From IMG/VR virus record IMGVR_UViG_3300025872_000037, positions 32,001 to 96,000 of that record: a stretch of DNA of 64,000 nt; one strand, 5' to 3'. Both the position numbers and the translations under genes were made by a program. How positions within the stretch are numbered: position 1 is the stretch's first letter; each line of letters opens with the position of its first letter. Under the pieces are notes generated by a model, which was not told where the DNA came from, searched no databases, and worked only from the letters and a program-made list of their open reading frames with translations. Of the stretch, positions 1 through 23,832 are shown in pieces. The stretch is from a virus.

Positions 1-31
1 CCACTGGTTACGACCCAACACGCGGCGCCGT

Positions 32-430
32 ATGAGCAACGACTGGGTACAAGATATCGCTGATATGCACCGCAAGTTCGGTGTCAATGATGCAGTACGC
101 AAGATGGATGCTGATAAGCTAAAAGCATTTTTGGAGTTTCGCATTCGTTTCCTACAAGAAGAACTTGACGAGATGCGAAACGCCGACGATCCTGAAGAAG
201 TAACGGACGCGCTGATTGATCTATGCGTTGTTGCCATCGGAACAATGGATGCTTTGGATATCAACGCTCATATTGCTTGGGATGAGGTGCATCGTGCAAA
301 TATGTCTAAGCAAGTTGGCATCAAGGATTCACGTCCGAACCCGCTTGGCTTGCCAGACTTAATTAAGCCAAAAGGTTGGATTGCTCCATTTCATACTGGT
401 AATATCGGTTTGCTTGAAAAGCTTAAGTGA
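32..430 (+). CDS. MazG/PRA-PH-like nucleoside triphosphate pyrophosphohydrolase (candidate dCTPase)
   Basis: EELDE...DALIDL acidic helices and EVHRANMSK motif; first gene of a base-modification operon. Confidence 0.75.
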   Translation: MSNDWVQDIADMHRKFGVNDAVRKMDADKLKAFLEFRIRFLQEELDEMRNADDPEEVTDALIDLCVVAIGTMDALDINAHIAWDEVHRANMSKQVGIKDSRPNPLGLPDLIKPKGWIAPFHTGNIGLLEKLK

Positions 431-1377
431 AGCACTCACTGACAGTTTTCGATTCGATCTTCGACAACAAGACATCCAAGCGGATGGATTTTGCCGAGTG
501 GACCGATCTCGAGAAAGTACTTTATCGCCTGAGCAAAATGCCAGGTTATAAGGCAAAAAGGGGAGAGATGAAAAAATCATCCTCACTCATCTCTCCCGCA
601 ATCTATCAGCCCAACTCGACCCGAGCCAACGCGAACGTCATCGCATGGGCGGGTTGGGCTGCTCTGGATGTTGACTCCTACGAGGGTGATATGCAGACTG
701 GCCTGGCTCAGTACCAGGACTATCATTTCGTCTGTTACTCGACTGCGTCCTCAACTATAGAGAAGCCGAAGTTCCGTCTCGTCTTTCCTCTGGTTCGTCA
801 TGTTCCGGCTGAAAGCATACGTCACTTCTGGTATGCGCTGAACAAGCAGTTTAATTCCATCGGAGACGAACAGGCAAAGGATCTGAGTCGTATGTACTAC
901 GTTCCTGCTCAGTATCCTGGTGCCAACAACTTCATCTTCACGAACTCTGGTAAGTGGATCGATCCTGACCAGCTCATGGCTCGGCACACCTATCTGCAGA
1001 AGACGAACGGCAGCATCCTCGATGGAATCCCTCAGGCCATGAGGGATGCACTGATGGAGGCCAGGAAGGAAAGGATGACGAATCGAGACGTTCGTTGGAC
1101 GTCCTATCGTGATTGCCCATTCGTCAACAAGAAGCTCATCGGAGAGTACCGGAACATCTCTGGGATCGACGGTTCTGGTCGGTACCGTATGATCTACAAG
1201 ATCATGACCAGCATCGCGTGTAATGCGGTCAAACGGAAGTACCCGATATCCCCAGAGGAGATCTCGAGCATGGTTCGTCAGCTAGACGAAGAGACCTCGA
1301 GGATCTACCAACGGCGGCCTCTGCATGTGGAAGCCGAGCGTGCAATCGAGTACGCCTATGCCCATGCAGATCAATAA
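427..1377 (+). CDS. AEP/prim-pol-like protein
   Basis: LDVD, YSTASS, PKFRLVFPL and D-x-SR motifs typical of phage primase-polymerase domains; GTG start. Confidence 0.6.
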   Translation: MKHSLTVFDSIFDNKTSKRMDFAEWTDLEKVLYRLSKMPGYKAKRGEMKKSSSLISPAIYQPNSTRANANVIAWAGWAALDVDSYEGDMQTGLAQYQDYHFVCYSTASSTIEKPKFRLVFPLVRHVPAESIRHFWYALNKQFNSIGDEQAKDLSRMYYVPAQYPGANNFIFTNSGKWIDPDQLMARHTYLQKTNGSILDGIPQAMRDALMEARKERMTNRDVRWTSYRDCPFVNKKLIGEYRNISGIDGSGRYRMIYKIMTSIACNAVKRKYPISPEEISSMVRQLDEETSRIYQRRPLHVEAERAIEYAYAHADQ

Positions 1378-1393
1378 GTTATGGTGCATTGGT

Positions 1394-1455
1394 AATCAAC
1401 AACTTAGGTAATTCTTAGTTGTTTACCTTTGCAAGGAATTTGCTAGGATATTGGC
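1394..1455 (+). promoter_or_regulatory. Early promoter cassette (IHF-like box, TTTAC -35, extended -10), copy 1
   Basis: AATCAACAACTTA-GGTAATTCTTAGTTG-TTTACC..TGCTAGGAT-6 nt-ATG; repeated elsewhere in the window. Confidence 0.7.
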
Positions 1456-1863
1456 ATGATGATTAACCAACTCGACAAGCAGACCCTCAAGACGATTCGT
1501 GCCGAGCTCGACCTCGCCATGAAGAACATCGAGAACCGGTACGGCGTGGTCCTTCGGACCGGCACCTGCCGCTTCACGTCCGAAGCCGCCACGATGAAGA
1601 TCGAGATCGCCACCCGCGGTGCTGCTGGCGAGGTGGTCGACACCGAGCTTGCCAACCTTCGCCGGAATCTGGCGTACCTCGGCCTGCGCGACGAGAACGT
1701 CGGCCAGACCTTTACCTACGGTGGCAAGACCTACAAGCTGACCGGCTACAAGCCGAAGCGTTACGCGAAGCCGTATCGCCTGCAGTGCCTCAACGACGGC
1801 AAGACCTACGTTGCTCCGGCGGACATGGTTCGTCGTGGCCTCGGTCTAGCCGTCCAGCCCTGA
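1456..1863 (+). CDS. hypothetical early protein
   Basis: ORF directly after the promoter cassette, phage-like codon usage. Confidence 0.75.
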   Translation: MMINQLDKQTLKTIRAELDLAMKNIENRYGVVLRTGTCRFTSEAATMKIEIATRGAAGEVVDTELANLRRNLAYLGLRDENVGQTFTYGGKTYKLTGYKPKRYAKPYRLQCLNDGKTYVAPADMVRRGLGLAVQP

Positions 1864-1865
1864 GT

Positions 1866-2459
1866 ATGCGAGTCAAGCTCACCCCTGAATCGGTCTCCTT
1901 TGCTATCGCAGAGGGGACCGAGATCTTTAAGAATTCTCGCAGCCTCAATTACCGAGACACGGAGCAGATAAAGATTAACAATTCCTTGCGAGGCGCATTC
2001 GGCCAACAAGCCTTCATTGAAGCGACGGGAGGCCGTCGCGTAACAGTTGAGGAGTGTCCAGCCTTTGCGTATGACGTGAAAGCCTCTAACGAGGCGATCC
2101 ACGCGTACTGTGGGTGGACTCTGCCGCTCGAGATGGACGCGGCGCGAGTTGAGGTAAAGACGAGCCGGATTGGCGGCCTCACGAAATGGATATCCTTCAA
2201 CGACCAAATGTTCAAGCACGTCACTAGGTGTGCAACCGCAGGGATGCTCGACTATGTGATCTTCTACGGAGTCCAGAACGAGGACCTGAAGAACTATGAG
2301 GCCGATGTTAGCCTTCTCGGAATTATTTCTGCCAAGGTTCTAACTCAGCAATTCACGGGCCCAGACAGGGAACGCCGACCATCGCTTCAAAACAAAGGAG
2401 ATTCGTTTCTTAATAAGAATAGCATCAACCGACAGAATCTCGGCCATATCTTTTTGTGA
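1866..2459 (+). CDS. hypothetical protein, possible PD-(D/E)XK nuclease
   Basis: ATG at 1866 just after the previous stop; YD...VEVKTS pattern. Confidence 0.45.
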   Translation: MRVKLTPESVSFAIAEGTEIFKNSRSLNYRDTEQIKINNSLRGAFGQQAFIEATGGRRVTVEECPAFAYDVKASNEAIHAYCGWTLPLEMDAARVEVKTSRIGGLTKWISFNDQMFKHVTRCATAGMLDYVIFYGVQNEDLKNYEADVSLLGIISAKVLTQQFTGPDRERRPSLQNKGDSFLNKNSINRQNLGHIFL

Positions 2460-2496
2460 TTTACAACCGCAACCATCTGTTTAGGATCTGACACCT

Positions 2497-3000
2497 ATGA
2501 AGGAATCAATTAAAATCTTGCACGAGTGTGCTGAACTGCAGCTCAAGAAGTCCAATGACTACCAGAATCCAAATTCCACGATCCGCCAAGCGGACTACTA
2601 TCCTCGCGGATTCGCTTCTATCCTGGACATCATCCATACCAAGGTCCTCCGCATGCGCTCGGTCCTCGAGGCCATGGAGAATGACCCAAACTACAATCCC
2701 AACTTTGAGTCGCTTGAAGATTCAGCCAAAGACCTGATCAACTACGCCTCATTCGCCGCTGCGTTCATTCGTGGTGGTATCGATGGCCAGGATCCGAAGC
2801 GTGACTTCTTGAATCGCCCTCGGAAGACTACGACTGGCACCATTAAGATAACTAGCTACGGGCCGCCAAGCGGCCAGCCATTCAATCCTCCTCCGGCAGG
2901 TAGTGTCTACCTGGACTGTAATACACCAGCCCAAGGAAACCTGACCGTCACCGGCACAGAAAACTCTCAGACAAAGTATTTCACCAATGCTAACAGTTAA
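2497..3000 (+). CDS. nucleotide-modification-associated domain protein (Nmad1/DUF1599-like, MazG-like helical fold)
   Basis: KKSNDY...K-x-x-R...ESLEDSAKDLINYA pattern; operon context. Confidence 0.65.
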   Translation: MKESIKILHECAELQLKKSNDYQNPNSTIRQADYYPRGFASILDIIHTKVLRMRSVLEAMENDPNYNPNFESLEDSAKDLINYASFAAAFIRGGIDGQDPKRDFLNRPRKTTTGTIKITSYGPPSGQPFNPPPAGSVYLDCNTPAQGNLTVTGTENSQTKYFTNANS

Positions 3001-3652
3001 AGACATCCGCCAACACTTCAAGGATGCTCTGACCCGTGAGGACTTCGTCATCGACAAGTCCGGTGTCAAGACCATCGAGATGGTCGGCGCCTCATTCCTG
3101 GCGAACGAGGATGCCATTTTCGGTGACGTCAATTGGGACTATGTCCGCCGTGAGATCCAGTGGTATGACAGCATGTCAAAGAAGGTCGCGGACATTCCTG
3201 GAGGTGCACCTAAAGTTTGGCAGGCTGTAGCCTCCAGCAAAGGAGAGATCAACTCCAACTATGGTTGGTGCATCTATTCCTCGGACAATCATAAGCAATA
3301 CTGGTCGGTGATGCTCGAGCTGCTGGCGAATCCAAACAGCCGCAGAGCCGTCATGATCTACACGCGTCCTACGATGCATTCTGATTATTGCCGAGATAAC
3401 ATGTCTGACTTCATGTGCACCAATGCGGTTCAGTACATGATTCGCAACAATGACCTTCATGCCGTGGTTCAGATGCGGTCCAATGATGTCGTCTTTGGTT
3501 ACAAGAACGACCGAGCCTGGCAACACGAAGTGATGGGTCGTCTTCTCGATGATCTGAACTCGAAGGGCGATAACCGCTATGGAATGGGAACTCTGACCTG
3601 GCAGGTCGGATCACTCCACGTCTACGAGCGCCACTTCAACCTCATTCAATGA
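2987..3652 (+). CDS. dCMP hydroxymethylase (T4 gp42-like, thymidylate synthase fold)
   Basis: INSNYGW, DFMCTN (catalytic Cys), MRSNDVVFGYKND with the cytosine-specifying Asp, GSLHVY. Confidence 0.85.
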   Translation: MLTVKDIRQHFKDALTREDFVIDKSGVKTIEMVGASFLANEDAIFGDVNWDYVRREIQWYDSMSKKVADIPGGAPKVWQAVASSKGEINSNYGWCIYSSDNHKQYWSVMLELLANPNSRRAVMIYTRPTMHSDYCRDNMSDFMCTNAVQYMIRNNDLHAVVQMRSNDVVFGYKNDRAWQHEVMGRLLDDLNSKGDNRYGMGTLTWQVGSLHVYERHFNLIQ

Positions 3653-4293
3653 ACTGTAACAAGTGGGACAACCGCTACCTGAGCCTGGCCAGAGAGGTCG
3701 GTTCGTGGTCCAAAGATCCTTCTCGCAAGATCGGAGCAGTGGCAATCGGAACCTGGGGCCAGGTTCTGTCACAGGGTTACAACGGTTTCCCACGCGGCAT
3801 TGAAGATACCGAGGACCGCCTGAACGATCGCCCGACAAAATACCGGTACGTCGTTCATGCGGAGATGAATGCCATCTACAACGCCAGTTTTAGCGGTGCG
3901 ATGTTGGCCGGTGCAACCATGTACGTGCACGGGCTTCCTATCTGTTCAGAGTGCGCGAAGGGAATCATACAGGTAGGAATCGGCCGCGTGGTCATACCGA
4001 GGCAGGAAGTACCAGATAACTGGAAAGAATCCTGTGAGTTCACCCGAACACTTTTTCATGAAGCAAAAATTCAGCTCGACGAAGTCGATTTCACCGAGAC
4101 TCATAGTTGTCGGAATGAACCCAGCGAAAACCCGTGGGAACCGGTCAAGATCTCCATCACTCCGGAGACTGGACGTATGGATGGATCGCCTGAAGATCCA
4201 GAGGTACTCGTTCATCAACAGCTCGCAGGCGCAAAAACCAAGGCTGTCAAATCTAGACCTGAATACTTTGGCCTTGACAAAAGGCTACGATAA
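3649..4293 (+). CDS. cd: dCMP deaminase
   Basis: SKDPS, GYNG, HAEMNAI and PICSEC zinc motifs; the C-terminal ~65 aa overlap the next ORF. Confidence 0.9.
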   Translation: MNCNKWDNRYLSLAREVGSWSKDPSRKIGAVAIGTWGQVLSQGYNGFPRGIEDTEDRLNDRPTKYRYVVHAEMNAIYNASFSGAMLAGATMYVHGLPICSECAKGIIQVGIGRVVIPRQEVPDNWKESCEFTRTLFHEAKIQLDEVDFTETHSCRNEPSENPWEPVKISITPETGRMDGSPEDPEVLVHQQLAGAKTKAVKSRPEYFGLDKRLR

Positions 4294-4450
4294 GGTCATT
4301 GCCCTTGGCGGGTTTGCCTCGCGAGCGCTGGATCGGATATCGGTCCAGCATTTTACTTTACCTCACCCGAGTCCTCTGAATCGAAAACTCAACGATCCAA
4401 AGTTTGAGGCCGCGGCGCTTGAAAAATGCTATAACTACCTGTACGCATGA
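4058..4450 (+). CDS. small uracil-DNA-glycosylase-superfamily protein
   Basis: VVGMNP, VIALG and LPHPSPLN motifs; start at 4058 is inferred. Confidence 0.65.
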   Translation: MKQKFSSTKSISPRLIVVGMNPAKTRGNRSRSPSLRRLDVWMDRLKIQRYSFINSSQAQKPRLSNLDLNTLALTKGYDKVIALGGFASRALDRISVQHFTLPHPSPLNRKLNDPKFEAAALEKCYNYLYA

Positions 4451-5613
4451 AAATTGAAATGACCCCTTACTACGACGAGTTCCTTCGCTACTTTAATCTG
4501 GCAAAGGATCAGCAGGCCAAGTGTAACCTTGGCATTATTCCTTACAAGGAATCTGAAATGGGAGATGCTCTTCTCGAGAACGTCGAACTGTACGATGTGG
4601 TGGAACGTAAGTACGCCGGTTTCTCTCAGATCGTCAATGACGTATTCTATGGATGGGCAGAGGAACATCCATACTGGCACAAGATGAAAGATGGCCACCA
4701 TAGCAAGCAGCGGAAAATCGTGGCCACGAACTGGACCGGTAAACAGAAGGTCTTCGGTCTAGAGGAATGGCTGTACGTCTTCCTGTTGCACCGAGTCTGC
4801 GGATCAGGAATCAATTACTCTCACAAACCATCAGGTTACCACAATACCCTACTCTTCGAACTTCACAAGTGCAATACGATCGAAGAAATGGTGGAGATGG
4901 TAAAGACGTATCCAAAGTCATTCTACACCTCGGTGGGATATCAGTTCCCGGCATTTCCAAAACCACATGCCGGGTCGGGGTACAAGCGAGGCGGTGATTA
5001 TTACTTGGCCGAATTTGCTCCGAGGTTGGTCAGGGACTTCGCAAAATTTTTGCAGGAAGCTCCTTCCCAGAAGGATCTGAGAGTATTGGGAGAATGGCTA
5101 TTTGCCTGGAACAAGAAGAATGGTCTGCGGGCCTACCGCTTCCAGTATGCCGCCTTCATTGCCGATGTCGCGGACTGGTTCCCTCAGTTCGTCAATCGGA
5201 CCAGCCATTTCTACTACGGTTCGAATGCCGTCGAGTGCATCTCGTACCTGGCAAAGCCGATGGGGCGACTGAAGGAGGAACAATTCTTGGATGCCGTGAT
5301 GGACAGAATCTATCTGGACACTGGATCGGTTCCCTACAATGCCGAAGACGTGTGCTGTGACTTCATCCGCTGGGTTGAGAATTATGTTCGTCCTGGAGCA
5401 GACTATGGCCACCTGGATCGAGACAAATTGTGGTCTTCTCACCGAATCACCGATCACCCGTACGGGCGCCAGAAGCCAATGCTTGAACTTGGTCTCATCA
5501 AATCTTTCAACGATTTGGATGTACACCCGTCCGACGACTATATACTGTCTAGGGCTGCAATGACTGTTACGGAATACAAGAACAAAGTGAAGGAACTTTA
5601 TGGCGCACGATAA
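4447..5613 (+). CDS. putative amino-acid:DNA transferase (aGPT-Pplase / HhH-glycosylase-like base hypermodification enzyme)
   Basis: DVVER..FS, FQY..IAD, YYGSNA and AEDVCCDFIRW resemble aGPT-Pplase motif order; sits next to a PLP enzyme. Confidence 0.5.
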   Translation: MKIEMTPYYDEFLRYFNLAKDQQAKCNLGIIPYKESEMGDALLENVELYDVVERKYAGFSQIVNDVFYGWAEEHPYWHKMKDGHHSKQRKIVATNWTGKQKVFGLEEWLYVFLLHRVCGSGINYSHKPSGYHNTLLFELHKCNTIEEMVEMVKTYPKSFYTSVGYQFPAFPKPHAGSGYKRGGDYYLAEFAPRLVRDFAKFLQEAPSQKDLRVLGEWLFAWNKKNGLRAYRFQYAAFIADVADWFPQFVNRTSHFYYGSNAVECISYLAKPMGRLKEEQFLDAVMDRIYLDTGSVPYNAEDVCCDFIRWVENYVRPGADYGHLDRDKLWSSHRITDHPYGRQKPMLELGLIKSFNDLDVHPSDDYILSRAAMTVTEYKNKVKELYGAR

Positions 5614-6487
5614 TCATGTCGTTGACGGAATCAACAAAGACCTGAAAGGATTGTCCTGGGCCGATGCCAAGGACTATTACCTAGGTCTTTGCGAAGGCTG
5701 GAAACCGTACAATCCGCCACCAGTTGTGGTGGAGCACGATGGTGTACAGGTGGTACGCGACGATCTGATCGTTGGTACGAAGACTCGCGCCGGAGATCTA
5801 CTGGCAGCCAAGGCGCCGCTCAAGACGATCGTGTACTGCCAGCCGCGTGTGGGTCTGGCCGGCGTTTCGATCGCCGATGTGGCCAAGAGGCACAACAAGA
5901 ACGTTGTTCTGTTCATGCCTTCCTCGAAGGAGATCTCTCGCCATCAGGCTTGTTGCATCGAGCGCGGTGCCACGGCATACTTCGAACGCATTGCTGCCAT
6001 GCCGAACCTGAATCGGAAGGCCGAGATGTGGGCCAAAGAGAACGGCGCATTCTTCGTTCCTCTCGGCCTCAAACACGAGTTAGCCACCGCTGGTATCGTT
6101 CACGCAGCCTCGATGATTCCGGAACCAGATGAAGTCTATGTGGCCATCTCGACCGGAGTGCTCTCTCGTGCCCTGCAGATCGCCTGGCCGAACGCAAAGT
6201 TCCACTGTGTGGCTGTGGCTCGTAATCTCAAGGAAGGTGAACTTGGCCGTGCCGAAGTCATCACCGAACCTCTGGACTTTACTGTAGCCGAGAAGAAGGA
6301 GAACCTGCCGCCGTTCCCGACGGTCAATACGTACGATGCGAAAGTCTGGAAGTACGTCCCGAAGAATGTCCGCGGAAAGAAGATCCTCATGTGGAACGTC
6401 GGTACCGAACCGGTTCTGAAAGACGAGACCATAATTCAGAAGACGAAGTCCTATCGTGACTGGGCAAAGAAGGAATCTAAAGGATGA
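5600..6487 (+). CDS. PLP-dependent fold-type II enzyme
   Basis: VRDDL..GTK.R (PLP lysine), VAISTGVL phosphate loop, YDAK. Confidence 0.75.
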   Translation: MAHDNHVVDGINKDLKGLSWADAKDYYLGLCEGWKPYNPPPVVVEHDGVQVVRDDLIVGTKTRAGDLLAAKAPLKTIVYCQPRVGLAGVSIADVAKRHNKNVVLFMPSSKEISRHQACCIERGATAYFERIAAMPNLNRKAEMWAKENGAFFVPLGLKHELATAGIVHAASMIPEPDEVYVAISTGVLSRALQIAWPNAKFHCVAVARNLKEGELGRAEVITEPLDFTVAEKKENLPPFPTVNTYDAKVWKYVPKNVRGKKILMWNVGTEPVLKDETIIQKTKSYRDWAKKESKG

Positions 6488-7509
6488 AATCAGTACTCGT
6501 AACTACTCCGATGGCTCCGATCTCGGAGCGCATCAGCTCTCATCGCGCCGCTCAGGCCGTGATCTATGCTGACCAGATTGCATCCAAGGGATATGACGTC
6601 ACGATCAACTTTGGCGGCAAGATCGACAACTACAATGACTGGGATATCCTGGCCGTTTACCACGGTAACGACTGGGGTGGTACGGTCAATATGTTCGGCG
6701 GCGTAAAGGCCTACGCGGCGATCGATCAGATCGTTAACCTATCGAAGTTCAAGGGAGAAGTATGGTCACTGGCAATCGATTTCCCAGACTATGCCGGGAT
6801 GATCAAGCCACGAGTGGACAAAGAACCAGACGCCCATCCAGCCTGGAAGAACGTCGACTGGGAAAATCTATCGAAGATGGTGACTTCGAGCTTGAAGATC
6901 CATACGAACGATTTTGTTGAATCGGGAAAACTTGCCTTCGGAGATTCACATGCGATCTCGATGTACCGTACAGGGTGGGAAGTCAACTCCGTACCGTTCA
7001 AGACTTTATATGGAGCTCTGGATATGGGACTCAAGGAATTTGTTATTGACGACGAGTACCAAGAGCTTGAGGTCTACTTCGGCAACATTGACATTCGTCA
7101 CCACCTGCTTCGTCAGCCAGATCCGAAGAAAGCGACTCAAGAACTCGTGTGCCGGTACGTCAAGCAGGCAAAGGAACTCAGAGAATCTGTCAAGGCCGAT
7201 GTGATTCGTATCTGGGAACCGCTGCCCATCGAGAACGAATCTCGCAAGTTGCCTAAGACCGGTTACTACAAGGGAACTCCGTTCTACGGATCCTGGACAG
7301 AGCGTAACGAGATCCGCAAGGTTTTTGTGGAAGAACTTCTGTCGAATTCTATCGACGGCGTGGATATTTTCCGATGGACCGACAAGCTCCTCAACGAAAA
7401 GGGAGAGCTTGATTTCGAGGCCATGGAGAAACCACAGTCCGTTCATCTTTCTCGTGCCTCCTATCCGCACTGGAGTGGAAAAGAGTGGAACGATTCTCAG
7501 ACAAAATAA
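6484..7509 (+). CDS. hypothetical protein with C-terminal SGNH-like domain
   Basis: FGDSH, FGNID and SVHL blocks in SGNH order. Confidence 0.5.
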   Translation: MKSVLVTTPMAPISERISSHRAAQAVIYADQIASKGYDVTINFGGKIDNYNDWDILAVYHGNDWGGTVNMFGGVKAYAAIDQIVNLSKFKGEVWSLAIDFPDYAGMIKPRVDKEPDAHPAWKNVDWENLSKMVTSSLKIHTNDFVESGKLAFGDSHAISMYRTGWEVNSVPFKTLYGALDMGLKEFVIDDEYQELEVYFGNIDIRHHLLRQPDPKKATQELVCRYVKQAKELRESVKADVIRIWEPLPIENESRKLPKTGYYKGTPFYGSWTERNEIRKVFVEELLSNSIDGVDIFRWTDKLLNEKGELDFEAMEKPQSVHLSRASYPHWSGKEWNDSQTK

Positions 7510-7546
7510 GATTTACAACCGTCACGAAATGTGACATGATACCTTT

Positions 7547-8626
7547 ATGTCATCACTGTTATCTAAGCTTAAGAAAAACTCAAAGATCGATCAGACCGAC
7601 GTGCTGGACAAGTCCGAACTCTTCAATGATAAGGACATGATTCCCACGGATATCCCGATGCTCAATGTGGCACTCTCGGGTTCTCTGGATGGCGGCCTTA
7701 CCTCTGGCCTGACGGTCCTCGCCGGTCCATCGAAGCACTTCAAGTCGAGCTACTCGCTCATCATGGCCTCTGCGTATCTTAAGAAGTACCCAGAAGCCGT
7801 CATGCTTTTCTACGATTCTGAGTTCGGTTCTCCACAACAGTACTTCAAGACCTTCGGTATCGATCCGTCTCGAGTTCTTCACACTCCTGTCACAAATGTC
7901 GAGGAGCTGAAGTTCGATCTGGTCAATCAGCTGAATGGCCTGGAGCGTGGAGAGAAGGTCATCGTGATCATCGACTCGATCGGTAACTTGGCCTCGAAGA
8001 AGGAAGTCGAGGATGCAATGAACGAGAAGTCGGTGGCTGATATGTCTCGAGCTAAGGCTCTCAAGGGTCTGTTCCGTATGGTCACTCCGTACCTGACTCT
8101 CAAGAACATCCCGCTCGTGGCCATCAATCATAGCTACAAGACGATCGAGATGTACTCGAAGGACGTCATGTCCGGTGGTACCGGCATCTACTATTCTGCC
8201 AATGCAGTCTGGATGCTTGGTCGCCAGCAGGACAAGGATGACGATGGTCTGCACGGCTATCACTTCGTGATCAACATCGACAAGTCTCGCTTCGTGAAGG
8301 AGAAGTCAAAGATTCCGATCTCGGTCTCATTCAACGGTGGCGTTGAGAAGTACTCTGGTCTTCTCGAGACCGCGCTGCTCGGTGGCTTCGTGACGAAGCC
8401 TTCGGCTGGTTGGTACCAGCGCAAGGGCGACGAGAACAAGTACCGCGAGAAGGATACATACGCAGCTGAGTTCTGGGATCCGCTTCTCAACTCGAGCGAC
8501 TTCAAGGAGTTCATCAAGGGCCACTTCACCGTTGGCTATCGTTCTATCTTAGATAATGAGGAAGCAAAGATCACCAAGTCAAACCTAAAAAATCTATCAG
8601 TTGAGGACGAAGAGGATGAAGAATAA
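7547..8626 (+). CDS. uvsX: RecA-like recombinase UvsX
   Basis: GPSKHFKS Walker A, YDSEFG, ADMSRAK. Confidence 0.97.
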   Translation: MSSLLSKLKKNSKIDQTDVLDKSELFNDKDMIPTDIPMLNVALSGSLDGGLTSGLTVLAGPSKHFKSSYSLIMASAYLKKYPEAVMLFYDSEFGSPQQYFKTFGIDPSRVLHTPVTNVEELKFDLVNQLNGLERGEKVIVIIDSIGNLASKKEVEDAMNEKSVADMSRAKALKGLFRMVTPYLTLKNIPLVAINHSYKTIEMYSKDVMSGGTGIYYSANAVWMLGRQQDKDDDGLHGYHFVINIDKSRFVKEKSKIPISVSFNGGVEKYSGLLETALLGGFVTKPSAGWYQRKGDENKYREKDTYAAEFWDPLLNSSDFKEFIKGHFTVGYRSILDNEEAKITKSNLKNLSVEDEEDEE

Positions 8627-8981
8627 GATCACCTCTAAATCTTACAAGCTTCTCGACAGCGAGAATGAAACGTATGCCGTACGAATCCTTGACAAAAAGT
8701 ACGAGGATGTTATCATCCAATACGGAAAGATTTCTCTCAAGGTCAACGAAGACTCCGAGACTGCAACGTTGAGCTATAAGTTCAGCATCGTCGATTGCCC
8801 AGATAAATTTATCAAAGAAGATCTGGAACACGACAAGAACTTCAATACATACGTCGGAGACATTCTAACGTTCATCATCCAAAGCGCATTCGATACCGGT
8901 AACTATACCTTCGGCGACGGAAAATCCTCTGATGTCAAATCAACTACAGACAACGATTCTTCAGAAAATCGTAAACGATGA
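8617..8981 (+). CDS. conserved protein between uvsX and gene 41 (gp40 position)
   Basis: Synteny only; ATG near 8617. Confidence 0.55.
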
Positions 8982-10293
8982 GAAGTTTTGCAGGAAAGTT
9001 CTGCCATTCATCAAGACTGAGTACTTCGATTCTGCACACAAGTGCGTCTATCGGTTAGTACTCGACTTCATCACGAAGTACAACAAGCTGCCGACTCGTG
9101 CAGCTCTGGACATCGACTTCCAGAACAAGGCAGAGACGTCTGAGGATCTGTATCCAAAGGCGGTCTCGATCCTTGAATCTCTGGATCAGAATCCTCAAGT
9201 AGAAGAAACATGGTTGCTAGAGAACACGGAGAAGTGGTGCAAAGACCGCGCCGTGTTCCTGGCCATCATGGAATCCATCGAGATCATCGATGGCAAGAAG
9301 AAGGATCTCTCGAAGGATGCGATTCCTGACATCCTTCACAAGGCTCTGGGAATCAACTTCGACAATTCTGTCGGACATGATTACCTGCAGGACTTTGAGA
9401 AGCGGTATGACTTCTATCATCGTGTCGAGGATCGTCTGCCGTTCGACCTTGAGCTGTTCAACACCATCACCAAGGGTGGGGTTCCTCGCAAGACGCTGAA
9501 CATCGCACTCGCAGGCACTGGTGTCGGCAAATCTCTGTTCATGTGCCACGTGGCTGCTTCTGCTCTAGCTCAGGGTAAGAATGTCCTTTACATCACTCTC
9601 GAAATGTCAGAGGAACGCATCGCTGAACGTATCGATGCCAACCTCATGAACATCCAGATCGATCAACTCTCATCTCTGAGTAAAGGTATGTTTGCCGATA
9701 AGGTCACTCGCATTGCAGGTACCACGGTCGGCAAGCTCATCATCAAGGAATACCCGACAGCATCAGCTCACACTGGGCACTTTCGTGCCTTGCTGAATGA
9801 ACTGAAGCTGAAGAAGGACGTTGTTCCAGATGTGATCTTCGTGGACTACCTGAACATCTGCGCCTCCTCTCGAATGAAGGGCCTAGGTGGTTCGATCAAT
9901 ACCTACTCACTCATCAAGGCTATTGCCGAGGAGCTTCGTGGTCTGGCGGTCGAGTTCAACGTGCCGATCTTCTCTGCAACCCAGACCACTCGATCTGGTT
10001 TCAGCAACACCGACCTCGAGCTTACTGACACGTCCGAGTCATTCGGTCTTCCTGCCACGGCCGACTTCATGTTTGCCTTGATCACCACCGAGGAGCTTGA
10101 GAAGCTTGGCCAGATGATGGTCAAGCAGCTAAAGAACCGGTACAATGACCCGAGTGCCAACAAGAGGTTCATCATCGGTGTTGACCGGTCCAAGATGAAG
10201 CTGTACGATGTGGAGGACAAAGCCCAGACCCTTTCCAAGGAAGCCACGGTCCGTGGTGGATCCAAGGATTTTAGTGATTTCACCATACAATAA
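8932..10293 (+). CDS. 41: replicative DNA helicase gp41
   Basis: AGTGVGKS, LEMSEE, VDYLNIC, SESFGLPATAD, KQLKNRY. Confidence 0.97.
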   Translation: MSNQLQTTILQKIVNDEKFCRKVLPFIKTEYFDSAHKCVYRLVLDFITKYNKLPTRAALDIDFQNKAETSEDLYPKAVSILESLDQNPQVEETWLLENTEKWCKDRAVFLAIMESIEIIDGKKKDLSKDAIPDILHKALGINFDNSVGHDYLQDFEKRYDFYHRVEDRLPFDLELFNTITKGGVPRKTLNIALAGTGVGKSLFMCHVAASALAQGKNVLYITLEMSEERIAERIDANLMNIQIDQLSSLSKGMFADKVTRIAGTTVGKLIIKEYPTASAHTGHFRALLNELKLKKDVVPDVIFVDYLNICASSRMKGLGGSINTYSLIKAIAEELRGLAVEFNVPIFSATQTTRSGFSNTDLELTDTSESFGLPATADFMFALITTEELEKLGQMMVKQLKNRYNDPSANKRFIIGVDRSKMKLYDVEDKAQTLSKEATVRGGSKDFSDFTIQ

Positions 10294-11497: not shown

Positions 11498-11661
11498 CAT
11501 ACATCAAAACGCTGGCTCCAATCTGGAACGTCATCGTTGCTGTCCTGAACTTCATGGCCTTCATCTGGCTGGCATCGTTTGTTTTCATCGTTATCTTTTT
11601 TCTTTATCACTGGGTCACCGGTAAACCAATTTCAATGGACTATGATGGTCCTGATTTCTGA
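11488..11661 (+). CDS. small membrane protein (57 aa)
   Basis: Read by hand: MALTYIKTLAPIWNVIVAVLNF...; coupled to the flanking ORFs. Confidence 0.55.
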   Translation: MALTYIKTLAPIWNVIVAVLNFMAFIWLASFVFIVIFFLYHWVTGKPISMDYDGPDF

Positions 11662-11966
11662 TGAGCTACAAGATCTTTCTCGGCACTCAAAATCCTCCAG
11701 ATTCTTCGTGGGTTCAACTGCGAAGCTTTTTGGACTTCAAGGTCGCTGTTGCGGCCCGGGGAATCCCAGAAGAAGTGTCATTTGATTATGAACTCGATGG
11801 AGAAGGAAATGGATATGACGCAGCCGCCTGGTTAATCAACCACTGCGTGACATTCTCCATGATTTTTCCAAGGTATTCGGTTGCCTGCAAAATTCCTGCT
11901 CAGTGCGAGAAGATTGAGATGCTCATCAGAAGCTTTAACTCGTACCGCCAGAGCACAATCAAATGA
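11661..11966 (+). CDS. divergent cyclic-phosphate-processing receiver-like (cREC) domain
   Basis: IFL...PP..W...RS; PEEVSFDYEL; GYD.A.WL. Confidence 0.6.
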   Translation: MSYKIFLGTQNPPDSSWVQLRSFLDFKVAVAARGIPEEVSFDYELDGEGNGYDAAAWLINHCVTFSMIFPRYSVACKIPAQCEKIEMLIRSFNSYRQSTIK

Positions 11967-12649
11967 AGATTGTCTGCATATCAGACACCCATGGTCGGCA
12001 TCTTGACATGCCGTTACCAGATGGTGATGCCATTATTCATGCCGGAGATTTCTGCTCCCATGGCAGCTACTACGACTGCGTACGTTTCTTTGGATGGTTC
12101 GGGAATCTCCCGTACGAACACAAGATCTGCATTGCCGGAAACCATGATCTTTGGATGGAGAGAGCGTCTCGGTCAGATCTCGATCCGATCATTCCACCGT
12201 CGGTCCGTTATCTTAACGATTCCGGAACTACGATCAATGGGATCAACTTCTGGGGATCTCCGGTCCAGCCGAGGTTCTACAATTGGGCTTTCAATCGTGA
12301 TCGTGGAGAAGACATCAAGAAACATTGGGATCGTATCCCAAATGATACGCACGTCCTCATCACTCACGGGCCCGCTCACGGCCACTGTGATACAGTCTAT
12401 CAGGTCACTCCGGCGGGAATGATGGCGGAGAATACTGGCTGCATGGATCTCCGCGCCACAATTGAAAACATTCGGCCTCACGCACATGTTTTTGGCCACA
12501 TTCACTGCGGATACGGAATGGAATGCAGCGAATCTACTGTATTCCTGAATTGTTCAGTCTGTGATGAATCCTACCGCGCAGTCAATCGTCCGTTCATTCT
12601 AGATCTAAACCCAGACGGCTCTGTCTTTGGAGCCTACGAAGCACTATGA
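11963..12649 (+). CDS. calcineurin-like metallophosphoesterase
   Basis: DTHG, HAGD, AGNHD, THGP, GHIH. Confidence 0.93.
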   Translation: MKIVCISDTHGRHLDMPLPDGDAIIHAGDFCSHGSYYDCVRFFGWFGNLPYEHKICIAGNHDLWMERASRSDLDPIIPPSVRYLNDSGTTINGINFWGSPVQPRFYNWAFNRDRGEDIKKHWDRIPNDTHVLITHGPAHGHCDTVYQVTPAGMMAENTGCMDLRATIENIRPHAHVFGHIHCGYGMECSESTVFLNCSVCDESYRAVNRPFILDLNPDGSVFGAYEAL

Positions 12650-13582: not shown

Positions 13583-14017
13583 ATGACAAACGACCAAGAT
13601 ACTGATGTCCCGTTCAACACAGACGAGGATCCGTTTCCCAGTGCCATCTGGGACAAAGCTGCCGATGATGCTGCAAAGCGTTATGCTGAGGCTGTACGAG
13701 ACGAGATCTACGAACTAGACGGGTCACAAATCGGAAAGGTCAACTTCAGCCACGAGATGGTCGCAAGTTCTGATCAAAAGAAGAAGGCCAGGTCAATAGT
13801 GATTCGGTCCGACTTCGGGGCGGTTCTCGTTTTACCGGACTTCAAGAAGAAGTCCGCCTCCGCCACGATCCTGAACCTTGGAGTCATTCGTGCCATGAAG
13901 CAGGAAGGGTACACATCAGAATATATCCAGGAGAACGGCAAGATCTATGGCGACGTCAGGCCTTTCGATAAAAAGAACGTTGAGCTATTCGCCTATTACC
14001 TGACCCATAAAATATGA
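13583..14017 (+). CDS. hypothetical protein
   Basis: ORF in operon. Confidence 0.65.
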   Translation: MTNDQDTDVPFNTDEDPFPSAIWDKAADDAAKRYAEAVRDEIYELDGSQIGKVNFSHEMVASSDQKKKARSIVIRSDFGAVLVLPDFKKKSASATILNLGVIRAMKQEGYTSEYIQENGKIYGDVRPFDKKNVELFAYYLTHKI

Positions 14018-14709
14018 TCTTTGACCATCAAACCGTACGGCTCATCAGCCACACGAAATCGGTCTCCAATGGTCCTGCTGCGATGGATATGCAGGAACTC
14101 GTGGCCTTCTGCGCTCGGGTCAGCAATCCAGCAAACCAGAACAACCTGGAGACATCCGAGAAGCTTGTTCGTTACCTGATCAAACACCGCCACTGGTCTC
14201 CTCTGGAGATGGTCTCGGCCACGGTCGAGATCAACACCACTCGTGACATCGCCCGGCAGATCCTGAGGCATCGTTCGTTTTCGTTTCAGGAGTTCTCTCA
14301 GCGCTATGCCGATCCGACCGCCGCTCTGGAGATGGTGGTCCGTGAGGCCAGGTTGCAGGACAAGAAGAACCGCCAGAATTCGGTTTCAACAGATGACCAG
14401 AACCTCATGATCTGGTGGAAGGAACGGCAGAAAGATCTCATCGAGCTGTCGGAGAGCATCTACAAGGATGCCACTGCCCGTGGAATCGCCAAGGAACAGG
14501 CTCGAGCGATCCTCCCTGAGGGTTGCACGATGTCTCGGATCTACATGGCCGGAACGCTGCGCAGCTTCGTTCACTTCATTGACGTCCGATCTGCCAATGG
14601 GACTCAGGCCGAATGTGCAGACGTGGCCCGAAAGACCGCAGAGGTTCTCAGGCCGGTTTTCCCAATGGTCCTGGAGTTTGTTCAATCTCAAGCCGTTGAT
14701 GGCCAATGA
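14014..14709 (+). CDS. thyX: FAD-dependent thymidylate synthase ThyX
   Basis: HWSPLE and RHRSFSFQEFSQRY signature. Confidence 0.95.
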   Translation: MIFDHQTVRLISHTKSVSNGPAAMDMQELVAFCARVSNPANQNNLETSEKLVRYLIKHRHWSPLEMVSATVEINTTRDIARQILRHRSFSFQEFSQRYADPTAALEMVVREARLQDKKNRQNSVSTDDQNLMIWWKERQKDLIELSESIYKDATARGIAKEQARAILPEGCTMSRIYMAGTLRSFVHFIDVRSANGTQAECADVARKTAEVLRPVFPMVLEFVQSQAVDGQ

Positions 14710-16607: not shown

Positions 16608-17105
16608 ATGGCTGCTGAGGTGCTGGTCACCGGTGGGTCAAAGTTCCAGCGCAAACTCCTACACGAGGCCTGCGATTACTATGTGACCCGTCTACTCGGT
16701 TACCAGATCTCTCGAGAGATCGTCGTGGTCGTCAAGATTCGAAAGAATCTGATGGAGCAGGAAAACTCAAAGGCAGACTGCATCTGGGATGATGACGAAG
16801 ATATGCCTCGGGAGTTTGAGATCCGTCTAGATGCTGATCTGACGATCATGGCGATGCTTCGGTGCCTGGCTCATGAGTGCGTTCATGTGGCACAGTACGC
16901 CTCCGGCAAGATGAAGGACACTAACTCGATTCAGGTCATTAAGTGGAAGGGCAAGAAGATCGATCGAAGAGGGATAGACTATTTTGATCTCCCGTGGGAG
17001 CTCGAGGCCTACGGACAAGAGTTCGGCCTAATGGATCGGTTCATCAATGCCAAAGGATACGCAAAGAAGAAGTGGTACAACGATCCTGACTTTTCTACTT
17101 CTTGA
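16608..17105 (+). CDS. zinc metallopeptidase-like protein
   Basis: LAHECVHVAQY (HExxH) and PWELEA. Confidence 0.8.
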   Translation: MAAEVLVTGGSKFQRKLLHEACDYYVTRLLGYQISREIVVVVKIRKNLMEQENSKADCIWDDDEDMPREFEIRLDADLTIMAMLRCLAHECVHVAQYASGKMKDTNSIQVIKWKGKKIDRRGIDYFDLPWELEAYGQEFGLMDRFINAKGYAKKKWYNDPDFSTS

Positions 17106-18366
17106 GTTTGAAGCCGATCTTGTTTCCGCCAGGATTTGCTACGTTCGAATGATACTCAAAGATGAATTCACTCTCGGCAAATCCTCTGAGCTCATACTCA
17201 ACCGAGCTGGCCGAGAGGTGAATATAAAGCTGCTGAATGTCGTTCGTTCGAACGATGTCTGTCAGAAATGACGTGTATTTTGGATTCTTGTTGACCTCGT
17301 CAACCAGAGCATAGGCCATCGGAGACAGTATGGCGCCAGATTTTCTCTGGCCGGGAGAATTCCATACCGATACCAGAGTCTCAAGCTTTCCAGCTCTGCC
17401 GATCTTCGAGTAGAAGTTTTTGTCCAGAGCCTTAAACGCCGACTCCCCGTCCTTGAATACCTTCATCCATTCCTCGATCTCCTTGTCCTTATATTCCTTC
17501 TCCCCGATAAGCTTTCCGACGAGGTCATATAGAGGGGATCCGATGGCTTTTGCTGCCATGACGATTCCATCCGTTCCAGAATTTTCTGAGATGGCGCCTA
17601 TGAAGTTATAGATCTTGCGATCATCCGGATTTGTAAAGTTTTTCCCCCTGAGCATTTCCCAGACCGAAGAGATAGACGGTGCAGCACCGCCACCAGCCTT
17701 TGCTGATACTGGAACCTTCAGTTTGTTCTTCAGAATCGCATAGTAGTCCACGAGCTTCTGATTGCTCTTGGATGGAAACTCGATCGCCACAACCTCGTCT
17801 TCCTTGTCGTAGTTATTCAGGAACCACCAAGCTCCGCTGATCTCTCCAAAATCTTTTGCGACGATGGCGATGTCTTTGTCCGAGAGTTTAGCCTTTGGTA
17901 GAGCTGCTTTGTTCTTAGAGCTATTGTTTAGCACCTCAAGCATGAACTCCTTGGCATGAGGAGCAACCATTGCGTTGTTCTTGATCGCCTTCTCGACCTC
18001 ACGAATGAAGCTCGCCCTTGGTATGGTCTTTCCTCCGAGACCCAGACCGTCAGGAGTCAGCATCTTGTTTCCGATGGTCTTGACGTTATCTGTACTGCCA
18101 GACCTAGGTTTCACCCCAGGTTTCTGGAGCATGTCAAACTTGACTCTGACCTTATGAGTCTTTCCGCCGAACTTATAGGTCACAACCGGTTTGCCATCGT
18201 AGTCTTTTGTCGATGGAACTGTGACTTCCTGTCCAGCATTCAGCTTGCCTACGACCTTCGACTGAACCTTCTCATCGAAGGCCTCAGTGTCTTTCTTAAT
18301 GATGGTCGTTACATCCCCGGCAAATTTGTAATACTTTTCCCAGGCAGCTTTTCCAGTTGTCGCCAT
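17095..18366 (-). CDS. hypothetical protein with probable PD-(D/E)XK nuclease-like domain
   Basis: DFGE, LVDYY and VSAK pattern; last gene of a late minus-strand operon. Confidence 0.5.
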   Translation of the reverse strand: MATTGKAAWEKYYKFAGDVTTIIKKDTEAFDEKVQSKVVGKLNAGQEVTVPSTKDYDGKPVVTYKFGGKTHKVRVKFDMLQKPGVKPRSGSTDNVKTIGNKMLTPDGLGLGGKTIPRASFIREVEKAIKNNAMVAPHAKEFMLEVLNNSSKNKAALPKAKLSDKDIAIVAKDFGEISGAWWFLNNYDKEDEVVAIEFPSKSNQKLVDYYAILKNKLKVPVSAKAGGGAAPSISSVWEMLRGKNFTNPDDRKIYNFIGAISENSGTDGIVMAAKAIGSPLYDLVGKLIGEKEYKDKEIEEWMKVFKDGESAFKALDKNFYSKIGRAGKLETLVSVWNSPGQRKSGAILSPMAYALVDEVNKNPKYTSFLTDIVRTNDIQQLYIHLSASSVEYELRGFAESEFIFEYHSNVANPGGNKIGFKLKK

Positions 18367-18980
18367 TATTTGATGCCCATGCCTTTTCTCACGTCATGGA
18401 ACATCTCATCCTTGTGAGCTGCACTCATCTTTGACGGAGCTCCGGCATGGAATTGTTTCTTGTTTCCTGTTGATGCATGCTCGCGCATCTTACTGGCCGA
18501 AATGCCGCTTACACCCTCTGAGTCCGGGTCACGTTCTCCGGCCGAGTGAACCGTGATTGACTTGAAGTGGTAGAACCCATGGTCGGTCTTCTTACCGTTG
18601 TATTTGTGCAGAACGGCGTGCATATCTTTGGCTCGGTCTGATCCAGCCACAACATGCAGGTGCTCGACGCCCTTGGAATGAAGGTCGACGGCGTGGTGCA
18701 GAAGACTTGGCTTCTCTTTACTGGAGGTCGAGAGATTCGTGCCAGGAAAAGCCCTCTTCGCGTGCTTCAGCTTTTGGGACGGGCTCAGGGGATTCTTCTT
18801 CGGGTCGTGTGAGTGAGACATGATGACCTCATGACTGGCGCCATGTTTCTTCGCGACGTCATGAACCTTGTTGATCAGTGCCTCGTGTCCATTCGTGATT
18901 GGATTCATTCGAACGAATGACATCACGTGGTGCTTACCAGTCGATTCCTGTTCCGTGACGAATTGAAGAAATCTTTTCAC
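18366..18980 (-). CDS. cytidylyltransferase-like (HxGH) nucleotidyltransferase, His-rich
   Basis: RMNPITNGH, KNPL, VAGSDR, SASKMR. Confidence 0.85.
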   Translation of the reverse strand: MKRFLQFVTEQESTGKHHVMSFVRMNPITNGHEALINKVHDVAKKHGASHEVIMSHSHDPKKNPLSPSQKLKHAKRAFPGTNLSTSSKEKPSLLHHAVDLHSKGVEHLHVVAGSDRAKDMHAVLHKYNGKKTDHGFYHFKSITVHSAGERDPDSEGVSGISASKMREHASTGNKKQFHAGAPSKMSAAHKDEMFHDVRKGMGIK

Positions 18981-18982
18981 CG

Positions 18983-20209: not shown

Positions 20210-20215
20210 TCCCCA

Positions 20216-20223
20216 TATTTATA
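20216..20223 (-). promoter_or_regulatory. T4-type late promoter
   Basis: TATAAATA on the minus strand, 6 nt upstream of the 20209 ATG. Confidence 0.75.
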
Positions 20224-20237
20224 CTATGGAAATGCCT

Positions 20238-20270
20238 AAAAGAAAACGGGGCGGATTTTGCCCGCCCCGT
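20238..20270 (-). terminator. intrinsic terminator of the lipoprotein gene
   Basis: ACGGGGCGG/CCGCCCCGT stem with T-tract on the minus strand. Confidence 0.7.
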
Positions 20271-20300
20271 GTTAAGGTAAAAGCTTTTACCCTGTGAGGG

Positions 20301-20618: not shown

Positions 20619-20639
20619 ATTTATCCAAAACGGTTCCTC

Positions 20640-23828: not shown

Positions 23829-23832
23829 TAAC

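Follow-up and report, generated by a model that had tools for sequence, protein, structure and literature searches.

To our knowledge, pyrimidines hypermodified with amino-acid-type groups have so far been found only for thymidine, and every characterised pathway of this type needs a DNA kinase. The thymidine pathways of phages M6, ViI, PaMx11 and PhiW-14 consist of a dUMP hydroxymethylase, a PF18748 kinase, a PF18724 transferase and a pyridoxal phosphate (PLP) decarboxylase (PMC8989533, PMC11472151). The adducts described for 5-hydroxymethylcytosine (hmC) in the texts at hand are sugars, as in T4, and a carbamoyl group (PMC8670742), and the arabinosyl bases of RB69 sit on 5-hydroxycytosine (PMC13326640). 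Our literature search for a route on hmC that involves an enzyme like the amino-acid:DNA transferases (AADT), a PLP enzyme or an SGNH protein found no description of one, and the portion of a review on Tevenvirinae bases that we used (PMC8056088) mentions none of the cassette genes reported below and names no Aeromonas phage of the 44RR2.8t group. Here we analyse a gene cluster at positions 32-7509 of a 64,000-nucleotide stretch of viral DNA, the window, which corresponds to bases 32001-96000 of the 128,087-base linear IMG/VR record IMGVR_UViG_3300025872_000037 (estimated to be 76% complete). The original prediction for this cluster, made from the letters alone, was a cytosine hypermodification pathway in which a maker of hmC is joined to amino-acid:DNA transferase machinery. 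We conclude that the cluster represents a real, widespread and so far undescribed hmC-directed, kinase-less variant of phage pyrimidine hypermodification: the phage makes hydroxymethylcytosine in the manner of T4, and its DNA is likely to carry a cytosine modification of a kind not reported to date.

The target base is indicated by the gene at 2987-3652 (+ strand), whose product of 221 amino acids (aa) is a dCMP hydroxymethylase of the T4 gp42 type. It aligns with the T4 enzyme along the full length (residues 2-220 with chain positions 6-225; PDB 1b49, 1b5d, 1b5e and 6a9b, E 2e-87) and reads SDFMCTN ... MRSNDVVFGYKND, where SDFMCTN contains the catalytic Cys (T4 Cys148) and the second motif is present exactly as the original prediction had quoted it. 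FMCTN and FGYKND of the window enzyme align with FMCTN and FGFRND of T4. Some gp42-like enzymes produce 5-hydroxy-dCMP rather than 5-hydroxymethyl-dCMP, and three positions are diagnostic, in ThyA numbering: Asp at N177 indicates cytosine as the substrate, replacement of L143 by an acidic residue points to a non-methyl product (it admits water, giving the hydroxymethyl group), and Asn at D169 marks a hydroxy and not a hydroxymethyl product (PMC13326640). The window enzyme has Asp at the N177 position (T4 Asp179) and Asp at the L143 position, three residues ahead of the Cys (SDFMC) as in T4, and the D169 position stays Asp (MRSND, not MRSNN). Since it is identical to the T4 enzyme at all three diagnostic positions, it is, by every available sequence criterion, a true 5-hydroxymethyl-dCMP synthase, and the expectation of a gp42-type enzyme with the cytosine-specifying Asp was borne out.

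The firmest link to the known hypermodification pathways is the PLP gene (5600-6487, + strand), which encodes a 295-aa PLP enzyme of fold type II that belongs to the same family as M6 gp52. Residues 38-268 match positions 14-278 of the 279 positions of phrog_7093 (E 1.4e-37), and M6 gp52, the archetype of this family, matches the same profile end to end (E 2e-159). The match to the PALP model PF00291 was under its 35-bit cut-off (E 0.071, 12.9 bits; M6 gp52 reaches 39.5 bits), and a direct BLASTP comparison with M6 gp52 gave a weak match (E 1e-4). Lys61 is aligned with M6 gp52 Lys36 and is invariant in an eight-sequence alignment of the window enzyme, M6 gp52 and six relatives, which also shows a shared Ser-x-Gly loop and, near the C-terminus, a shared PFP..YD.K.W motif. 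Lys36 is the probable aldimine lysine of M6 gp52, which decarboxylates a glycine-derived adduct on thymine in DNA (PMC8989533). The predicted PLP fold-II enzyme has thus turned out to be an M6 gp52 relative that retains the catalytic Lys. Its only relatives in cultured phages (29-35% identity, E 1e-27 to 7e-30) are in Microcystis phage Mae-JY30 (L086:6992-7702) and Erythrobacter phage vB_EliS_R6L (KY006853 gp1); both are annotated as 'DNA modification methylase' and lie near ParB/sulfiredoxin genes or inside a very long gp1.

The gene at 4447-5613 (+ strand) encodes a 388-aa DNA-glycosylase-like helical protein with an all-alpha AlphaFold2 model (pLDDT 94.9). It had no match in Pfam, PHROG or NCBIfam, and 954 homologues were found at E <= 0.001. 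Glu300 and Cys304 (Glu-x3-Cys) are invariant in 45 sequences of this family, and the same spacing occurs in the PF18724 member M6 gp51 (E243-x3-C247). Mutating the transferase Cys or the neighbouring Glu abolishes activity (PMC8989533), and the structural study of PaMx11 gp46 proposes Cys247 as the nucleophile that attacks C6 (PMC11472151). The features assigned by ESM Atlas point to PF18723: 26 of the 30 named matches are clusters with 11-13% PF18723 members. The PF18723 model itself matched neither the helical protein nor any other part of the 128-kb record (positive control M6 gp55, E 8e-56). For profile comparisons by hhalign we aligned the helical family (A1), 26 members of PF18724 (A3) and 19 members of PF18723 (A5). 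In the A1-A5 alignment, which is marginal as detailed below, Cys304 falls on the invariant Cys295, Glu300 on Glu291 and the hairpin G258-x-N260 on GPGA of M6 gp55, with Asp305 opposite the invariant Glu296 and Arg308 opposite the invariant Lys299. Foldseek against the predicted viral structures of BFVD gave strong matches only to uncultured-phage relatives of the helical protein, one of them 62% identical and named 'Amino acid:DNA transferase domain-containing' in UniProt; below these came a weaker run of AADT, Pplase1, HMUDK_hel and EndoIII structures (E 0.003-0.4, TM 0.37-0.51). We read the helical family as a third clade within the AADT / HMUDK_hel superfamily, formerly called aGPT-Pplase, that lies closer to clade 1 (PF18723) than to clade 2 (PF18724) and retains the catalytic-looking Glu/Cys dyad. 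In many close loci, a 345-aa helical paralogue (hhalign E 1.8e-5) is encoded between the helical and PLP genes; one locus (L013, 11106-15286) has the paralogue and also, downstream of the module, a C5-cytosine methylase.

The gene that follows the PLP gene (6484-7509, + strand) encodes a 341-aa protein with two domains, an N-half resembling the N-domain of T4 beta-glucosyltransferase (BGT) and an SGNH C-half (AlphaFold2 pLDDT 89.1). A phmmer search of the PDB with the sequence returned no match. With the C-half (residues ~145-341), the best Foldseek match in the PDB was the SGNH esterase 2hsj (E 9e-6), followed by sialate O-acetylesterases and PAF acetylhydrolases (E 1e-4 to 2e-3), with TM (target) values of 0.5-0.6 over ~205 columns. 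The SGNH blocks are Gly-Asp-Ser (block I), Gly-x-Asn (block III) and His (block V). GDSH (Ser155), GNID (Asn201) and S-[VI]-H (His321) are present in all 16 sequences of a diverse set that includes seven fused forms (see below), a protein of Aeromonas phage 44RR2.8t and the L080 lineage. The fold match and the conserved blocks together confirm the SGNH-like protein of the original prediction.

The similarity of the N-half to BGT is weaker. Scores against PF09198 (T4 beta-glucosyltransferase) were 14.8 and 16.5 bits, under the 27-bit cut-off (Pfam E 0.025), and hhalign of alignment A2 with T4 b-gt gave E 8.5e-5 at a probability of 60% (residues 31-97 with 29-98). Foldseek of the model against BGT 1nzd gave E 6e-4, and an N-x-F-G-G motif is common to the family and T4 b-gt. 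The position that we take to match BGT Asp100 is not conserved in the 341-aa family. The UDP-glucose-binding C-domain of BGT is not found in the 341-aa protein, whose C-half matches SGNH esterases instead. The gene stands directly upstream of uvsX, the position of b-gt in T4, between 42 and uvsX. The statement that the cluster lacks a glucosyltransferase holds for the recognised glycosyltransferase families, none of which is found inside the cluster, and has to be qualified by the weakly BGT-like N-half and by a GT2-family gene elsewhere in the window (52467-53216).

The 341-aa and helical proteins are physically coupled in part of their relatives. An exhaustive search with the helical protein yielded seven proteins of 639-790 aa, and in all seven a 341-like part (E 2e-29 to 2e-58) at the N-terminus is joined to a 388-like part at the C-terminus. 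A comparable architecture occurs in cultured T4-like phages of Aeromonas (44RR2.8t, 31 and others): the first 330 residues of a 795-aa protein resemble the 341-aa protein (E 2e-41), and the C-part shows a weak PF18723 match (E 0.0036), a GPGA hairpin and an E-x2-C-C-x-F stretch. Beside a normal thymidylate synthase, phage 44RR2.8t encodes a gp42-type enzyme that reads SDFMCTN and MRSNDAIFGYRND. The helical family itself gave no significant hhalign match to the 44RR2.8t fusion or to M6 gp51 alone, the A1 profile found no match in 44RR2.8t or in Tenacibaculum phage PTm5, and tblastn of the 388-aa protein against cultured phages returned nothing at E <= 1e-3. PTm5 has a stand-alone 341-aa homologue among ribonucleotide reductase genes (L137:5914-6903, L140:1441-2280), and its divergent thymidylate-synthase homologue reads MRSNN...D, with Asn at ThyA 169, the 5-hydroxy-dCMP synthase signature.

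The downstream genes travel together with the hydroxymethylase gene. In IMG/VR, a collection of viral contigs, a pattern scan yielded 569 stretches that were confirmed to encode relatives of the 388-aa helical protein; the counts given here refer to the best 80 of these 569 (64-93% identical), searched by tblastn with the window proteins. The PLP gene lies beside the helical gene in 76 of the 80 loci and the 341-aa gene is present in 75, and all loci without the PLP gene (four) or the 341-aa gene (five) end within ~1.1 kb of the preceding gene. This three-gene core in 75-76 of 80 loci, together with the 569 stretches, shows that the grouping is not due to chance. Upstream, tblastn found gp42 in 66, the Nmad1-like gene in 59, the UDG-like gene in 46 and MazG, upstream of gp42, in 45 of the 80 loci; a deaminase gene is next to gp42 in 42. 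The three core genes come after a gp42-type gene in all 66 loci that are long enough to show it. Where the UDG-like gene is present, it is always located between gp42/deaminase and the helical gene.

A motif scan of the same loci agreed with these counts. There were 66 matches to the Asp169/Asp177 motif in 66 of the 80 loci, 64 of them preceded by SDFMCTN, and a single Asn/Asn match, which lacked the Cys motif and was taken as chance. Among the 14 loci without a gp42 motif, eight are cut upstream and six belong to one lineage (L072, L076, L079-L082); the records of L072, L080 and L081, which are 15-39% complete, contain no thymidylate-synthase homologue in the sequence present. In two deeper lineages, whose helical proteins are 25-35% identical to that of the window, a thymidylate-synthase homologue of the Asp/Asp type is found in five of nine loci, and the remaining four contain no thymidylate-synthase homologue within the stretch fetched. 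None of the 89 loci showed a hydroxymethylase of the dUMP type (Asn177) next to the module. These data support a tie between the downstream module and the gp42-type gene across shallow and deep lineages. Three further open reading frames (ORFs), at 427-1377, 1456-1863 and 1785-2459, which the original prediction had left unmentioned, were rejected as cassette members; since they recur in only 5, 3 and 2 of the 80 loci, the segments 427-1377 and 1456-2459 lie outside the conserved set. The first of them (316 aa, with a primase-like N-terminus), situated after MazG and ahead of the modification genes, matches only the first 250 of 939 positions of the 'DNA primase' family phrog_9765 (E 4e-62), and a homologue is kept in three (L094, L096 and L098) of the five loci L094-L098.

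The P-loop 5-hydroxymethyluracil (5-hmU) DNA kinase of the thymidine pathways is absent. Its absence had been noted for the window; when we widened the search to the whole 128,087-base record, PF18748 was again not found, nor was it found in the related records G004 (99% complete), G005 and G001.

All genes that the original prediction had named in the cluster were recovered there, all on the + strand and where it had placed them. The MazG-like nucleotide pyrophosphohydrolase (32-430; PF01503, E 4e-8; phrog_671, E 4e-22) may serve as a dCTPase, which would provide dCMP and prevent dCTP from entering the DNA, by analogy with T4 gp56. The Nmad1/DUF1599-like gene (2497-3000) is directly 5' of the gp42-type gene and overlaps it; its product matches phrog_18404 (E 5e-13) and phrog_1485 (E 4e-11), with a Pfam score under the 25-bit cut-off (PF07659, E 0.0017, 19.1 bits). 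The gp42-type gene is followed by that of a 214-aa dCMP deaminase (3649-4293; PF00383, E 2e-17; phrog_174, E 2e-39). The deaminase domain finishes near residue 147, and most relatives have 147-159 aa compared with 214 aa here. The deaminase ORF overlaps the UDG-like ORF by ~236 bases (3649-4450), and the close relative L003 has a long form too (231 aa); a lost stop codon, a real overlap or an assembly frameshift are possible origins of the long ORF. The UDG-superfamily protein (~130 aa; ORF 4034-4450, + strand, probable start 4058) matches PF03167 above the 24.3-bit cut-off (E 1.1e-5, 26.0 bits), and the motif HPSP[LR]NR or a near variant (HPSGLNR, HPSMRNR) occurs in 11 aligned homologues; phmmer against the PDB gave no match for it. 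The separate ThyX flavin-dependent thymidylate synthase that had been placed at 14014 is indeed encoded there (14014-14709, + strand; PF02511, E 2e-41), and together with the deaminase it probably constitutes an ordinary dTMP supply of the T4 type. An NCBIfam scan of eight window proteins produced nothing useful.

We regard it as reasonably probable that these genes form a two-stage pathway which puts a hypermodified cytosine into phage DNA. In the first stage, before replication, the MazG-like enzyme would return dCTP to dCMP, and the gp42-type enzyme would turn dCMP into 5-hydroxymethyl-dCMP, to be phosphorylated and incorporated into DNA in place of cytosine, with the dCMP deaminase and ThyX providing ordinary dTMP. 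The predicted production of hmC DNA is well supported by the strong homology of the enzymes involved. In the second stage, on DNA, the 341-aa and 388-aa proteins would act as a pair on hmC, in the role that the P-loop 5-hmU DNA kinase plays with its helical partner in the thymidine pathways. The SGNH domain (Ser155, His321) would esterify the 5-hydroxymethyl group and so provide a leaving group without ATP-dependent phosphorylation. The helical protein would flip the base, and its Cys304, helped by Glu300, would attack C6; the ester would depart, and a nucleophile, probably an amino acid, would join the exocyclic methylene. Finally, the M6 gp52-type PLP enzyme (Lys61) would trim the amino acid thus attached, and the simplest such reaction would be a decarboxylation that leaves an amine. 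We favour acyl activation because C6-attack chemistry needs the hydroxyl group to be made a leaving group, and because the kinase is absent while the SGNH protein has an intact Ser-His pair and a physical connection with the helical protein. Gene identity and linkage, the existence of the fusion, the conservation of the catalytic residues and the missing kinase are direct observations. The second stage as a whole we infer from linkage, fusion, PLP family membership and conserved catalytic residues, and DNA as the substrate, the order of the steps, the activation by acylation and the nature of the adduct are to be read in the same way.

Several observations weigh against this pathway. For the helical protein, the original prediction of an aGPT-Pplase-like protein holds, in our reading, at the level of the superfamily, with PF18723 as the nearer family, and fails for the PF18724 transferase. 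We rejected membership in PF18724 because both the model and the profile comparison fail: the model gave no match to the helical protein at E <= 10 and none in six frames of the 128-kb record (positive control M6 gp51, E 1.4e-46), and hhalign of A1 with A3 gave a probability of 0.7% (E 0.077, 18 columns) and left the two E-x3-C motifs unaligned to each other. The comparison of A1 with A5 (PF18723) was marginal (E 0.0034, probability 9.6%, 159 columns). The published reconstitution could do without M6 gp55, a clade-1 member (PMC8989533), so the nearest relatives of the helical protein are without a proven catalytic role. The structural comparison proposed for 4447-5613 yielded the weak AADT/Pplase1/HMUDK_hel/EndoIII run in BFVD and, in the PDB, nothing at E <= 0.001; the top PDB folds were archaeal 8-oxoguanine glycosylases, all at E > 0.1, and PaMx11 gp46 (8z2n) appeared at E ~2. 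For the SGNH domain, the Asp of block V (DxxH) is not evident in the 16 sequences of the 341-aa family. As the record is 76% complete, a kinase could be encoded in the missing part. The GT2 gene at 52467-53216 (PF00535, 28.4 bits with a cut-off of 23.3; best PDB match GmaR, E 1.4e-6) could add a sugar; we rejected it as an obligate partner because it is absent from all five related records searched.

The accessory genes raise a further point on the same side, since the PLP gene does not occur throughout. It is missing from the L094-L098 lineage, and in L096 (8328-12792) its place is taken by two genes, one for a UDP-glucose/GDP-mannose dehydrogenase family member and one for an NAD epimerase/dehydratase. 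In the L080 lineage (L080:8605-15423), a GT2-TPR gene and a UDP-galactopyranose mutase gene are added, and in the cultured Aeromonas phages the fusion is present and no PLP homologue was found; the fused pair of 44RR2.8t stands beside a sodium:solute symporter. Because the accessory genes vary by lineage, the core pair may be a general group-transfer engine that places groups on hmC, with a product that differs from lineage to lineage. With respect to the adduct, which had been predicted to be amino-acid-derived and possibly acylated, the same pair is accompanied elsewhere by sugar-nucleotide enzymes in place of a PLP enzyme; in this window, the M6 gp52-type sequence argues for an amino-acid-derived group. 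A bolder scenario, which we put forward as tentative, is that a large aquatic T4-like clade has swapped the glucosylation of hmC for O-acylation by the SGNH protein, whose BGT-N-like domain would grip the DNA, followed by a Cys-dependent exchange of the ester for an amino acid or some other nucleophile, and that interchangeable accessory genes, with a PLP decarboxylase in this phage and sugar-nucleotide enzymes in others, diversify the adduct.

The variation of accessory genes also underlies the strongest alternative, in which the conserved pair places a non-amino-acid group (an acyl ester or a sugar-derived group) on hmC, the accessory genes make or tailor the free donor, and the PLP enzyme acts on a metabolite. 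Accessory genes do change while the pair persists (L096, L080, 44RR2.8t), and SGNH domains are known as acyl transferases as well as esterases, which fits this alternative. We nevertheless consider it rather unlikely, since the helical Cys/Glu motif suits C6-attack chemistry better than plain binding, the PLP gene is a direct neighbour in 76 of the clade's 80 loci, and the PLP enzyme belongs to the family of M6 gp52, an enzyme shown to act on DNA-bound amino acids (PMC8989533).

A second alternative concerns the base. The module could decorate 5-hydroxymethyluracil, obtained by deamination of hm-dCMP or of hmC in DNA, and so resemble the M6 and ViI systems by an unusual route; deamination of hm-dCMP had also been named as an alternative in the original prediction. 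The dCMP deaminase gene does stand between gp42 and the module in the window, and all known PLP-enzyme and helical-superfamily relatives with proven function act on thymidine derivatives (PMC8989533). Against this, the deaminase gene adjoins gp42 in only 42 of the 80 loci while the module persists, which makes a deamination route to 5-hmU unlikely. A deaminase combined with a thymidylate synthase is also the ordinary T4 arrangement, with ThyX present here, neither an Asn177-type hydroxymethylase nor a 5-hmU DNA kinase was found with the module, and a UDG-superfamily gene would presumably be a liability where uracil derivatives abound in the genome. Taken together, we judge this route very improbable. 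Slightly less credible still is the idea that no DNA modification takes place, with the helical and UDG-like proteins as repair glycosylases for an hmC genome and the PLP and SGNH proteins in unrelated metabolism or attack on the host envelope: the best PDB folds of the helical protein are indeed 8-oxoguanine glycosylases (at the E > 0.1 given above) and SGNH esterases commonly act on carbohydrates, but seven of seven long forms join the esterase-fold protein to the helical protein, the order and the adjacency to gp42 are fixed, the PLP enzyme comes from a family known for DNA modification, and the 341-aa gene occupies the b-gt position.

The source genome is that of a T4-like phage that is uncultured and of freshwater origin. 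An ORF of 862 aa, DNA-polymerase-sized by length only, ends just upstream of the window; UvsX (7547-8626; PF21134, PF00154) and a gp41-like helicase of the DnaB family (8932-10293) are encoded after the cluster, and ribonucleotide reductase and DNA ligase genes lie farther along. The order polymerase ... 42 ... uvsX, small ORF, 41 agrees with that of T4 (43, imm, 42, b-gt, segA, uvsX, 40, 41). Megablast of window positions 1-8000 against cultured phages gave no match. Freshwater metagenome runs of several studies contain near-identical DNA, and at least half of the sampled words were found in three further studies when two possible source samples were excluded.

The remainder of the window contains several other features. 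A cluster of 17 tRNA genes (36952-42548, + strand) includes a full-length tmRNA gene (41165-41541; RF00023, 91.8 bits with a threshold of 47 bits, E 2e-35), for which ARAGORN predicts the tag peptide GISNVIEAIFGTRTEELQLAA. One tRNA (38658-38734; 42.7 bits with the Rfam tRNA model) has a four-base anticodon (cctg) according to ARAGORN, and a Pistol ribozyme match (42225-42284; RF02679, 36.9 bits with a threshold of 34.5, E 4e-4) lies between the tmRNA and the last tRNA-Met. At 11661-12649, the gene of a cREC_REC protein (PF20274, E 4e-9), a 'cyclic-phosphate processing receiver', is directly followed by that of a calcineurin-like phosphoesterase (PF00149, E 8e-11), and the two proteins may act in the processing of a cyclic nucleotide or phosphate. 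The region 17095-26340 shows a strong, strand-linked AT skew (-0.26 at 18001-20000, +0.32 to +0.33 at 22001-26000) and carries large ORFs (423, 408, 623 and 729 aa) without a functional PHROG match.

If the proposed pathway is true, amino-acid-type chemistry would extend to cytosine and proceed without a DNA kinase, which would imply a new way of activating the hydroxymethyl base. If the O-acylation reading is true as well, the 341-aa protein would be the first DNA-base O-acyltransferase, activating its substrate without kinase or ATP, and a family of undescribed cytosine bases could be expected. Since the cassette is common (569 IMG/VR stretches, freshwater runs), its product may be a major DNA form in aquatic viromes that has so far escaped measurement, with a bearing on the evasion of restriction and CRISPR, on bias in sequencing and base-calling, and on hmC-labelling enzymes. 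As cultured Aeromonas phages possess the fused core pair and a gp42-type gene, the question is directly testable at the bench.

The closest described systems each share part of this design. The locus is like T4 in its gp42 enzyme (E 2e-87), in the order 43 ... 42 ... [transferase] uvsX 40-like 41 and in the weak likeness of the 341-aa protein to the BGT N-domain; it differs in that the helical and PLP genes are inserted as two extra enzymes and that an SGNH-fold domain stands where BGT binds UDP-glucose. The 5-hydroxy-dCMP and arabinosylation clusters of RB69 and DLP3 are likewise in T4-like phages, with an Asp177 synthase and modification genes between the polymerase gene and uvsX or rIIA, whereas their synthases have Asn at ThyA 169, where the window enzyme has Asp, and they are combined with glycosyltransferases and NDP-arabinose genes (PMC13326640). 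The hmC carbamoyltransferase of MetaGPA, which was found through its linkage to a gp42-type gene in metaviromes, also places a non-sugar group on phage hmC, yielding 5-carbamoyloxymethylcytosine, but that enzyme is unrelated and acts in one step on the hydroxyl group, with no helical, PLP or SGNH part (PMC8670742). PF18723 (HMUDK_hel, e.g. M6 gp55) is the nearest named family of the helical protein by ESM Atlas and hhalign, with Cys aligned on Cys, although its model misses the window protein and its partner is a P-loop kinase and not an SGNH-fold protein. With the thymidine pathways, the locus shares a 5-hydroxymethylpyrimidine nucleotide made by a thymidylate-synthase homologue, a Glu-x3-Cys helical protein, an M6 gp52-family PLP enzyme with its Lys, and helical genes that can pair as paralogues (the 345-aa paralogue of related loci). 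Unlike these pathways, it is directed at cytosine by an Asp177-type synthase instead of at uracil, it has no P-loop kinase, its helical protein fails the PF18724 and PF18723 models, and the partner of the helical protein, adjacent or fused, is an SGNH-fold protein in place of the P-loop kinase.

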